IMG/VR virus record: IMGVR_UViG_3300045988_119600
Direction: 5' to 3' (one strand)
DNA from: a virus
Length of the DNA: 30,429 nucleotides
Below, piece after piece: positions 24,091 to 25,120 of this stretch; position 1 is the first letter of the stretch, and the number at the start of each line of letters is the position of its first letter. Made by a program: the position numbers and the translations under genes. Below the pieces are notes generated by a model. That model was not told where the DNA came from. It ran no database searches and was given only the letters and a program-made list of their open reading frames with translations.

Positions 24091-24330
24091 TTGGGGCGTT
24101 AACACGGATTTTGTAAGTTTAAACTACCACCGATCGAAAGAGTATGTGGTTTGCGGAAAACGCCCGACTAAATATAAGAAAGCGAAGTAAAACTTATTGT
24201 GAAGTAGTGGCTATACTCACATTAATCAAGGCTATGGGTTCTGGGAATCCAAAAGAGTAAAAGTTGGTTCGAGTCCTAACGGTTGACGAAGTTCGAATCT
24301 TCGCGATGTGGGTTATAAAACTCTTTATTT

Positions 24331-24407
24331 GCTGGTGTAGTCGAATTGGCATAGACGAATGATTTAGGATCATTAATCTGAAGGTTCGAGTCCTTTCTCC
24401 AGCACCA
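24331..24407 (+). tRNA. tRNA with anticodon UAG (reads CUA/CUG, Leu) but a short variable arm. Discriminator A73, CCA encoded
   Basis: Anticodon stem aatga/tcatt with loop uuUAGga, T-arm gaagg-ttcgagt-ccttt, acceptor gctggtg/ctccagc (one mismatch). Confidence 0.6.
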
Positions 24408-24494
24408 ATCCCTCCCTGGGAATGCGTTGAAGGCTTGCGGACTTTGAACGCAGGTGGTTGGCGACTCCATCTATACATAAATAAGTCGCATTTC

Positions 24495-24573
24495 GGGCTT
24501 CGGGACTGCATGGCGTGGTCGTCTGTCTTGCACACAGAAAATCAGGTGAGTTCGATTCTCACGAGGTCCACCA
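24495..24573 (+). tRNA. tRNA-Ala (UGC), 7-nt variable region, CCA encoded
   Basis: Acceptor gggcttc/gaggtcc (two G·U), anticodon stem tctgt/acaga with loop cuUGCac, T-arm gtgag-ttcgatt-ctcac. Confidence 0.55.
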
Positions 24574-24579
24574 TTATAT

Positions 24580-24652
24580 GGTTATATGGTGTAAAGAGTA
24601 AGCACGGCGGTTAAGTAAACCGCAAGTTTGGGAGCATTGCCCAATATAACCA
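24580..24652 (+). tRNA. tRNA-like gene with a non-canonical anticodon loop (uAAGUaa, no U33) and a non-canonical T-loop (agcattg)
   Basis: Perfect acceptor ggttata/tataacc, perfect anticodon stem gcggt/accgc, T-stem ttggg/cccaa. Confidence 0.3.
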
Positions 24653-24985
24653 ATTATATGATTGGTGATAAAAGCAGCCAGAAATATTATCTTATTAATT
24701 AAACATTAATACAATATACTAAATGATATAATAGATAAGGTATATTAATAAAACTTATATACAATAAGATAATATATACAAAATGCTAATAGTGATTTTG
24801 GTTTCAGCGCTAAGAAAGTTTTTCCCACTAAGAAGAGAAAATTTGAGCAGTTAGCGTAGTCTAGAAGTTATTCTTAAATAACTCCCGTTTTGGTTTGTAG
24901 CCTTTTTCGGAAAATAAAATGGTAATACAGTAAATTATGCAAATCGTGACGCCGCGAAGGGACGGCCGCCCTAAAGTGCGATTAA

Positions 24986-25120
24986 GATTAGAAAGAAGTT
25001 GGAAGATCTTCTTAAAACTTCCGTTAGATTAGAAAGAAGTTTTGAGGGTTCTTCTTAAAAATCCAATTAGATGATTAGAAAGAAGTTTTGAGGATTCTTC
25101 TTAAAAATCCTCTTAGTTAT
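24986..25120 (+). repeat. Three tandem 41-46-bp repeats (GATTAGAAAGAAGTT-N-CTTCTTAAAA-N'), each able to fold into a hairpin. A degenerate fourth copy lies at about 24852-24880
   Basis: gattagaaagaagttggaagatcttcttaaaacttccgtta / gattagaaagaagttttgagggttcttcttaaaaatccaatta / gattagaaagaagttttgaggattcttcttaaaaatcctctta. Confidence 0.75.

Follow-up and report, generated by a model that had tools for sequence, protein, structure and literature searches.

What kind of sequence fills the roughly 1 kb between the genes for tRNA-Asn and tRNA-Leu(CAA) in a phage transfer RNA (tRNA) cluster? The DNA in question is a stretch of 30,429 nucleotides (nt) from the IMG/VR virus record IMGVR_UViG_3300045988_119600, called the window throughout: AT-rich large-phage DNA in which a long run of plus-strand early-type genes is followed by a tRNA cluster at 23358–30079 with 16 ARAGORN calls, all tRNAs lying on the plus strand. 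An earlier note, made from the letters alone, had described the region as structured non-coding sequence with degenerate tRNA remnants, a GC-rich island and tandem hairpin repeats. The hairpins, the long-range stem, the island and the repeats that it listed are all at the positions given and exceed chance expectation. We find that the region is non-coding, structured and unclassified, falling into none of the families tested. To our preferred reading we assign a probability of about 0.45: a mosaic of separately folding plus-strand modules in an early tRNA operon, which would be excised by tRNA maturation and would include a multivalent decoy array. That the modules are selected, structured RNAs at all we regard as quite probable. 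Overall, the region has the appearance of a new group of small phage RNAs, which may be decoys, and not of debris from dead tRNAs. The coordinates of all features are collected in Table 1.

For the comparisons we used about 30 related human-gut phage loci that span the region (L numbers) and give roughly 16 distinct sequences per module, with L010, whose ATPase is 52% identical, added as one distant relative. The close relatives come from IMG/VR and human-gut metagenomes, where the long assemblies among them are contigs of 124–196 kb, and make up a family of phages of roughly 120–196 kb. Searched against about 50,700 phage records, the window DNA had no match by megablast, and with sensitive BLAST the matches were limited to tRNA genes.

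Upstream of tRNA-Leu(CAA), three or four tandem hairpin repeats had been proposed. Three tandem repeats are indeed present (Tandem Repeats Finder: 24981–25110, period 46, 3.0 copies, score 165), but the units are predicted to be pseudoknots and not hairpins. The repeat unit, with the linker UUAGAAAG and a pseudoknot of 6+6 base pairs (bp), measures 41–46 nt; we collected 20 distinct units from 16 distinct arrays, and near-identical phages carry 2, 3 or 4 copies. A 6-bp stem (S1) and an interleaved stem of 5–7 bp (S2) are possible in 20 of the 20 distinct units. Together with the loops (L1–L3) they follow the order S1-L1 (1–6 nt)-S2-L2 (0–2 nt)-S1'-L3 (AAA or AAAA)-S2', which is the topology of an H-type pseudoknot. 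S1 occurs as AAGAAG/CUUCUU, AACAAG/CUUGUU and AAGAGG/CCUCUU, giving two independent compensatory variants, and S2 is found in three compensated forms (UGGAAG/CUUCCA, GAGGAUU/AAUCCUC and GGGAUU/AAUCCC) as well as in G-U variants. S1 is 95% paired, compared with 47–68% when slid, and its covariation of 0.194 stands against 0.108 in shuffles, with 0 of 500 shuffles reaching as high a value. The complementarity of S2 is found within units and not between neighbouring units. Because the two stems interleave and both show compensatory variants, we conclude that the predicted fold of each repeat unit is not a simple hairpin but an H-type pseudoknot. Moreover, the recurrent G-U pairs can form only on the plus strand, which places the structure there. 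We also considered a CsrA sponge, which needs GGA in hairpin loops; this idea is weakened, the GGA being paired in the covarying S2. Searches with nhmmer and scans of the collections found no homologues of the repeat beyond the clade.

At the other end of the region, the two T-arm-like hairpins without complete tRNA bodies that the earlier note had pointed out are both in place, and in 24091–24330 no tRNA or transfer-messenger RNA (tmRNA) is called by ARAGORN or Rfam. They sit in a 93-nt module that combines a small hairpin (hairpin C) with a three-way junction. The window contains 11 copies of the T-loop word GTTCGARTC, where 0.34 would be expected, and outside called tRNAs the plus-strand copies are only those of T-arm-like hairpins 1 and 2; in relatives, hairpin 1 has a perfect 5-bp stem. 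Over 12 distinct sequences, 99.3% of the cells of the module are paired, compared with 31–63% when the partner is slid by 1–3 columns. The one double change of the module, from U-A to C-G, is in hairpin C, which reads GGGCU/AGUCC in L062; the remaining in-stem changes are one-sided, to G-U, among them U-A to U-G in three variants of hairpin C. The variable positions are linkers, at columns 48–50, 71 and 80. The module occurs beside either allele of the 5' neighbour and beside either of the two alleles that the genuine tRNA-Leu(UAG) has among relatives. Among six phages, this module and the 72-nt hairpin upstream of it are 96–98% identical, compared with 81–84% for the flanking tRNA-Asn, tRNA-Leu(UAG) and tRNA-Ala genes. 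The modules are thus better conserved than the adjoining tRNA genes, are kept beside differing 5' and 3' neighbours and preserve their pairing when stems change, which makes the description as degenerate tRNA remnants doubtful. A covariance model of the module matches in this clade only. Two other candidates were dropped: a tRNA with a long variable arm, or with the acceptor pairing CACAUUA/CGAUGUG, whose 5' strand is missing in allele 2, and an attP-like or tRNA 3'-end scar, the T-arm fragments extending into no tRNA 3' end in the fetched genomes.

The 72-nt hairpin (hairpin A) is closed by the long-range stem gggcgtt…aacgccc that had been noticed before: GGGCGUU (24094–24100) pairs with AACGCCC (24159–24165), and CCAC pairs with GUGG at the apex. 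The conserved internal strands are ACAYGG.AUUUU, GUUUAAACUA and UUGYGG.AA. In L041, L045, L047, L062 and L063 we found a second allele that is different yet complementary, with the closing stem AUUGGUCU/AGACCAAU, the apical stem GAUAGU/ACUAUC and the same internal motifs as allele 1. Compared by eye, the two alleles are altered on both sides in 5 of the 7 comparable closing pairs, with pairing intact. An insertion of about 25 nt in L068 falls in the apical loop only. The z-score of the minimum free energy (MFE) of hairpin A is only −1.6, and two substitutions seen in relatives break its inner MFE pairs, so that we discard the inner pairing and claim support for the closing and apical stems only. 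In the linker specific to allele 1, 5 of the 5 substitutions in relatives fall within the loop of a small hairpin (24198–24221), which is missing from allele 2. For the 5' segment (segment A), nhmmer, the covariance model and the collection scans gave no homologue beyond the clade; motif hits in L014 and L020 were chance matches in coding DNA. In L001 (about 8480–8560), another tRNA is trailed by a second element that shares the motifs of hairpin A (CACG.GG.AU ... GUUUAAACUA ... ACGGUGG); the element is also found in L063 and L086 (minus strand), the window being without it. Given this element, hairpin A may be one member of a small family that trails tRNAs.

The leader of tRNA-Leu(CAA) comprises small hairpins, the GC island and the array. 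The GC-rich hairpin island suspected at about 24940–24975 exists, although it has to be redrawn as two adjacent hairpins (H1 and H2) plus a conserved tail. H1 is closed by U-A in 7 distinct sequences, by C-G in 5 and, in L010, by A-U, and H2 of L010 reads GGGU...ACCC around a different loop. One motif, CGUGAYGCCGCG...AAAGUGCGA, is common to the clade of the window and L010, and is the only part of the region traceable to a distant relative; in L010 the GC hairpins and a structured leader stand upstream of tRNA-Leu(CAA) with no repeat array. K-turn, box C/D, hammerhead and guanidine-II motifs were dropped for the island by eye, and covariation supports the two-hairpin model. L010 further contains, at 5560–7795, more than 1.5 kb of GC-richer sequence around tRNA-Leu(UAG) and tRNA-Leu(CAA), with no convincing open reading frames (ORFs) and no Rfam match. 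Upstream of the island, the hairpin at 24866–24883 has another allele (in L001, L003, L007 and others), GAUAAUUAU...AUAAUUAUC, of different sequence and still paired. The short hairpin at 24892–24907 becomes GGUU-CAU-AACC in L007 (U-G to U-A) and has a weakened stem in L001; the terminator scan did not call it.

Coding potential is low throughout. As the earlier note had held, 24660–25120 has no credible ORF: the ORFs there reach at most 31 amino acids (aa) and have no ribosome-binding sites, and the 31-aa ORF at 24937–25032 loses its ATG in relatives. A 38-aa ORF at 24144–24260 has no usable ribosome-binding site and shows, counted by eye, 4 non-synonymous against 2 synonymous changes. The array changes its length in steps of 41–46 nt, not a multiple of 3, which further argues against coding. 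The Rfam scan that had been suggested as a check returned no family, neither at the gathering threshold for the whole window nor at E<=10 for 2.5-kb and 1-kb sub-regions. No tRNA cloverleaf was called by ARAGORN or Rfam in 24091–24330 or 24654–25120, even at E<=10, and neither program found a tmRNA; the 5' end GGGGCGUU pairs locally at 24159–24165 and not, as the tmRNA arrangement would have it, with a 3' T-arm or acceptor. The other check proposed beforehand, conservation of structure in relatives, turned out in favour of the idea: the structure is conserved, with compensatory changes in the 72-nt hairpin, hairpin C, the GC hairpin and both stems of the repeat, so that the description as structured non-coding sequence within the tRNA cluster holds.

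How would these modules be made? Promoters at 23857 and 23945, with perfect TTGACA-17-TATAAT or near-consensus sequence, precede tRNA-Asn, the next promoter lies at 25325, and there is no convincing terminator between 23945 and 25325. Thus, the region is probably contained in one early transcript, which tRNA processing would cut at 24330 and 25120. The promoters are copies of a repeated early-promoter cassette (23615–23643, 23857–23885, 23945–23973 and 25325–25353; two copies perfect TTGACA-17-TATAAT) that recurs in L010; downstream of the copies at 23615 and 25325 come ATATTTATAGAAAGTTRAGAAAGGA and a small ORF, of 60 aa at 23678 and of 35 aa at 25388, respectively.

We infer co-transcription, release by tRNA processing, stability and a decoy function, in the following way. 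The roughly 1 kb between tRNA-Asn and tRNA-Leu(CAA) would be transcribed within the early tRNA operon, exploiting the early consensus promoters for high and early expression. RNase P cleavage at the 5' ends of the downstream tRNAs, together with 3'-end processing of the upstream tRNA, would then release small stable RNAs. The two canonical T-loops of the 93-nt module could mimic tRNA elbows, and the pseudoknot array, 5'-capped by the GC hairpins, could be a multivalent decoy that draws off an RNA-binding protein or endoribonuclease. In the best-fitting model the array would mimic a type III (CptI- or ToxI-like) antitoxin RNA and so neutralise a host abortive-infection toxin, its copy number (2–4) being tuned by slippage as in the pseudo-ToxI of phage PhiTE. 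The antitoxin-mimic mechanism is a tentative proposal that we consider rather doubtful in this specific form. We likewise think it unlikely, if worth stating, that the array is an RNase P-matured counter-defence RNA (a CptI-like mimic or another decoy for a nuclease or RNA-binding protein) whose dose would be set in the wild through changes in unit number (2–4), with the two-T-loop module as a second, elbow-mimicking decoy, so that the tRNA island would double as an anti-defence island. The surrounding early region is filled with small proteins without a Pfam match, which we count in favour of the preferred reading.

The analogy to type III systems can be stated quite precisely. Type III repeats measure about 31–62 nt and occur in about 2–5.6 copies (PMC3401426 Table 2), and the cptI family of gut Firmicutes has 40–48-nt repeats in 1.9–3.4 copies (PMC3401426). 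The array has a period of 41–46 nt with three copies in the window and 2–4 in relatives, and two interleaved stems, hence a predicted pseudoknot per repeat, in all distinct units. In E. rectale, CptI folds as an H-type pseudoknot of 45 nt whose L1 is a single nucleotide and whose minor-groove loop L2 is rich in A, and it is cut between GA and AAG (PMC4627078); we took its sequence from a primer table. The array resembles it in size, copy range, predicted H-type topology and A-rich linkers, and both belong to a setting of gut Firmicutes or their phages; the units of the array vary with compensatory changes, and their copy number by slippage. Units of type a in particular share the 1-nt L1, an 'AU' between the stems, an all-A L3 and UAGA-AAG in the linker. 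PhiTE escapes ToxIN when its toxin-less pseudo-ToxI expands from 1.5 to 4.5–5.5 repeats (PMC3475682), and the present array likewise consists of phage repeats without a toxin that vary in copy number.

Several observations weigh against the preferred reading, and we gather them here. At the position where a type III locus has its terminator and endoribonuclease toxin gene, neither was found downstream of the array, which is followed instead by tRNA-Leu(CAA), a promoter and ORFs of 35–82 aa; the region is therefore not a toxin-antitoxin locus. The array lies directly 5' of tRNA-Leu(CAA), in a tRNA leader, unlike type III loci. Compared without alignment, it does not resemble CptI of E. rectale in sequence, and its minor-groove loop counts 3–4 A against the 9 nt of the CptI loop. 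Nor, to our knowledge, does it share sequence similarity with ToxI. The L3 loop of 3–4 A is also short for crossing a 6-bp stem, and the nested fold of type-a units is similar in energy, a competing fold that the AACAAG/CUUGUU variant disrupts with S1 intact. The folding energy of 24091–24330 is no better than that of shuffles (z = +0.27). The informative relatives all form one close clade in which several stems are invariant, and outside the clade the GC-island motif alone recurs, in L010. The AT-rich spacer at 24660–24784 is likewise 97.5% identical among the six phages, so that the baseline is high, and with a background identity of about 97% conservation by itself proves little. A scan of the viral collection for the repeat found this clade only, and a pattern scan over 185,579 species genomes, with a pattern of fixed linker and S1, returned the phage itself in a mis-binned Mollicutes genome and chance matches. 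With no toxin gene downstream and no host look-alike found, we can offer the decoy role only as a conditional proposal. The Mollicutes record is contig L086 (CAMELE010000001.1, 163,874 nt), labelled as a metagenome-assembled genome of an 'uncultured Mollicutes bacterium', which carries the leader, GC island, repeat array, tRNA-Leu(CAA) and segment A; it appears to be a phage genome, so that the label is no evidence about the host.

Could the structures serve the tRNA precursor alone? They would then be cis-acting maturation or stability elements that shape the precursor and are afterwards degraded with no role in trans: they might present the tRNAs to RNase P or RNase Z, block exonucleases (e.g. 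RNase J1 in Firmicutes) or set the yield of tRNA-Leu(CAA). Every module lies within 3–8 nt of a tRNA end, tRNA-Leu(CAA) is invariant, the scans found no target in trans, and the GC hairpins with the structured leader also occur in L010, which has no array. However, most other tRNAs in the cluster, some only 1–4 nt apart, are without such structures, which are therefore not generally needed. Moreover, a cis element has no evident need for two T-loops, for 2–4 pseudoknots or for a copy number that varies among near-identical phages. We consider this explanation possible, although it seems somewhat doubtful to us.

The region could also be non-functional debris, in which T-arms are left from deleted tRNAs, the repeats slip neutrally and conservation means recent ancestry. 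Indeed, the T-loops are exact matches to the tRNA consensus, and allele swaps, indels and insertions that carry endonucleases make the cluster a mosaic; beside the high background identity, no homologue of segment A was found outside the clade. The repeat copy number is unstable, and L041 has a hybrid unit with a C-C mismatch. Against this stand the many compensatory changes, found in at least five helices, and the persistence of hairpin A as two very different alleles of the same architecture. Likewise, in-stem substitutions of the 3' module keep their pairing whereas the linkers vary freely, and nowhere else in these genomes do the T-arm fragments extend into a tRNA 3' end. We thus rate debris as improbable.

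A single large multi-domain 'ornate' phage RNA with embedded tRNAs, in the manner of ROOL or GOLLD, appears very improbable. It would account for about 1 kb of structured RNA in which predicted pseudoknots are interleaved with tRNAs, and ROOL and GOLLD do occur near tRNA islands (PMC12286853). However, neither covariance model matches at the gathering threshold or, with the 1-kb query, at E<=10, and the modules assort independently, with separate alleles, whole-module indels and an AT-rich block (24660–24784) that is wholly missing from L062, which argues against a single co-folding unit. A DNA-level element (an iteron replication origin, a protein-binding or a packaging site), suggested by the 125-bp AT-rich block near three direct repeats of about 43 bp, is hardly credible, since units within one array differ yet stay complementary (GGAAG/CUUCC vs GGAUU/AAUCC), which points to RNA pairing and not to a DNA-binding site, while the G-U pairs work on the plus strand only, L062 keeps the repeats without the AT-rich block and the cumulative GC skew rises monotonically through 24–25 kb with no inflection.

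We return to the reading as separately folding, possibly decoying modules and set it beside other known RNAs. YrlA RNAs carry a T arm followed by a D arm and a Ro-binding helix, use a T-arm elbow mimic outside a tRNA and are found in phages. Segment A shares with them a canonical T-arm sequence outside a tRNA; it differs in having two T arms and no D arm, and no Rfam YrlA match lies in the region. Two YrlA hits below threshold, one in L010 (34.5 bits) and one at 29951–30062 of the window, are explained by a T arm with a D arm of neighbouring tRNA sequence after it; at 5374–5481, the L010 element consists of a permuted T arm, hairpin and D arm with a mismatched Ro-binding helix. Consecutive H-type pseudoknots 5' of a tRNA-like fold are known from the upstream pseudoknot domain of tobamovirus 3' untranslated regions and from PK2–PK4 of tmRNA, and the array resembles these in placing three consecutive predicted pseudoknots immediately 5' of a tRNA. 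Theirs differ from one another, whereas the array units are recent duplicates, the tRNA-Leu is ordinary and complete, and no tmRNA is called.

The analogy with T4 that the earlier note had drawn is fair, RNAC and RNAD being small RNAs of the T4 tRNA region whose function is unknown (PMC3014915). Like them, the present modules are non-coding, lie among phage tRNA genes and are presumably co-transcribed; RNAC and RNAD are not repeat arrays, and BLAST finds no similarity in the approximately 50,700 phage records beyond tRNA genes. ROOL and GOLLD are phage or prophage RNAs, often near tRNA islands, with multiple pseudoknots and self-assembly into cages, and the GOLLD linker sometimes contains tRNAs (PMC12286853). 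The modules described here differ in being small (70–140 nt), independently assorting and without an Rfam match. The region is best filed as a new example of structured small RNAs in phage tRNA islands, with a repeat array in the style of type III antitoxins. Codon supply or tRNA replacement is the role usually given to phage tRNA islands, and what the non-tRNA RNAs in them do (T4 RNAC and RNAD, ROOL, GOLLD) is a long-standing question on which the region may bear, as it offers small tractable modules, a natural copy-number series and two allelic forms. If a host ribonuclease toxin were the target of the array as a decoy, this would be the first RNA antitoxin mimic that is polymorphic in nature, beyond the laboratory-evolved PhiTE case, and tRNA processing would be used to make anti-defence RNAs. 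Should its role be confined to aiding processing, the modules would represent new cis elements for the maturation of tRNA operons in Firmicutes-type phages.

Table 1. Positions of the features in the window; stems are written as 5' strand/3' strand.
Feature	Position	Strand	Structure or remark
Hairpin A, 72 nt	24094–24165	+	begins 3 nt past the CCA end of tRNA-Asn
Small hairpin	24198–24221	+	UGUGA/UCACA, 14-nt loop; in allele-1-specific linker
3' module, 93 nt	24235–24327	+	hairpin C and three-way junction; ends 4 nt before tRNA-Leu(UAG)
Hairpin C	24235–24251	+	UGGGUU-CUGGG-AAUCCA; GGG-containing pentaloop, 6-bp stem
Three-way junction	24252–24326	+	closed by AAAGAGU/ACUCUUU; carries T-arm-like hairpins 1 and 2; predicted fold
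T-arm-like hairpin 1	24263–24280	+	GUUGG-UUCGAGU-CC(U)AAC; one bulged U in the window
T-arm-like hairpin 2	24287–24303	+	CGAAG-UUCGAAU-CUUCG
Spacer hairpin	24461–24489	+	GCGACU/AGUCGC; between tRNA-Leu(UAG) and the tRNA-Ala-like gene
Atypical tRNA-Ala(UGC)	24495–24573	+	ARAGORN call; Rfam tRNA model below threshold
tRNA-shaped element, ARAGORN 'Thr(AGU)'	24579–24653	+	without D-loop GG, T-loop consensus and U33
AT-rich spacer, 125 bp	24660–24784	+	two direct repeats of about 39 nt (24693–24731, 24743–24781); weak promoter-like site only
Long hairpin	24807–24857	+	GCGCUAA/UUAGCGU and inner A/U helix; predicted, RNAalifold consensus; without double changes
Hairpin	24866–24883	+	AGUUAUU-CUUA-AAUAACU
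Short hairpin	24892–24907	+	GGUU-UGU-AGCC then U5; resembles a weak terminator or pause site
GC island	24944–24983	+	H1, H2 and conserved single-stranded tail AAAGUGCGAUU (24973–24983)
H1	24944–24957	+	UCGUG-ACGC-CGCGA
H2	24959–24971	+	GGG-ACGGCCG-CCC
Array of three predicted pseudoknot units	24984–25120	+	joined by AUUAGAUUAGA linkers; ends 8 nt before tRNA-Leu(CAA)
Unit 1	24993–25023	+	S1 AAGAAG/CUUCUU, S2 UGGAAG/CUUCCG
Unit 2	25034–25064	+	S1 AAGAAG/CUUCUU, S2 GGGUU/AAUCC
Unit 3	25080–25112	+	S1 AAGAAG/CUUCUU, S2 GAGGAUU/AAUCCUC
tRNA-Leu(CAA)	25121–25208	+	3' boundary of the leader; 100% identical in six phages

The tRNA-like genes between the two structured segments vary as well. The tRNA-Ala(UGC) has G3-U70, a normal anticodon loop, a T arm and an encoded CCA together with an odd D region (arms checked by eye), and L001 has a different tRNA-Ala allele at this site. 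In the spacer hairpin before it, L007 and L009 read GCAACU/AGUUGC, a compensatory change from G-C to A-U. The anticodon arm of the 'Thr(AGU)' element is not conserved, with a 2-nt deletion in L007 and a 3-bp stem in L062, and its T-like stem covaries from UUGGG/CCCAA to UCGGG/CCCGA. Extra whole modules are found between tRNA-like genes, 54 nt long in L002 and L009 (window 24570–24578) and about 170 nt long in L062, there between tRNA-Ala and the tRNA-like element, showing that the cluster evolves via gain and loss of modules.

The tRNA-Asn (GTT) at 24014–24090 is intact in the window and split in the anticodon loop in several relatives (L001, about 6386–6857; L003, L027, L030, L068 and L072; L062 on the minus strand, oriented about 403–1128). 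One insertion of about 470 nt encodes a PD-(D/E)XK endonuclease (Pfam PF11645, E=1.3e-31), and that of L062, about 725 nt long, holds an ORF that looks HNH-type by eye and has an in-frame TAG. The insertions leave very little non-ORF sequence for a ribozyme, and no Rfam intron was found in them at the gathering threshold. At 23358–23428 of the window ARAGORN calls a tRNA with a two-base 'anticodon', and in relatives it calls suppressor-type tRNAs with the anticodons CTA (labelled Pyl, about 90 nt) and TCA (labelled SeC), at 15168–15257 in L001, 16911–16990 in L007 and 16489–16568 in L009. These calls, together with the in-frame TAG in L062, suggest that the phage recodes stop codons.

The only informative protein of the window is an AAA ATPase at 28680–29819, which shares about 43% identity with ATPases from Enterococcus and Bacillus myophages. 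A sub-threshold type-P1 twister ribozyme lies at 28178–28228 (+) between two small ORFs (39 bits against a gathering threshold of 67, E=2.6e-7 with a 301-nt query), with the conserved core present and one hairpin shortened; its 3' GAGGAGG also serves the ORF that starts at 28234 as ribosome-binding site. Finally, a 40-nt tandem repeat (2.8 copies) at 1–111 and five copies of a 22-nt repeat (ACCAAAAATATAGAAATTTTTG) at 1261–1388 lie in AT-rich DNA upstream of the turn of the cumulative GC skew at about 2–3 kb, and these repeats at the start of the window could be a genome terminus or replication origin.

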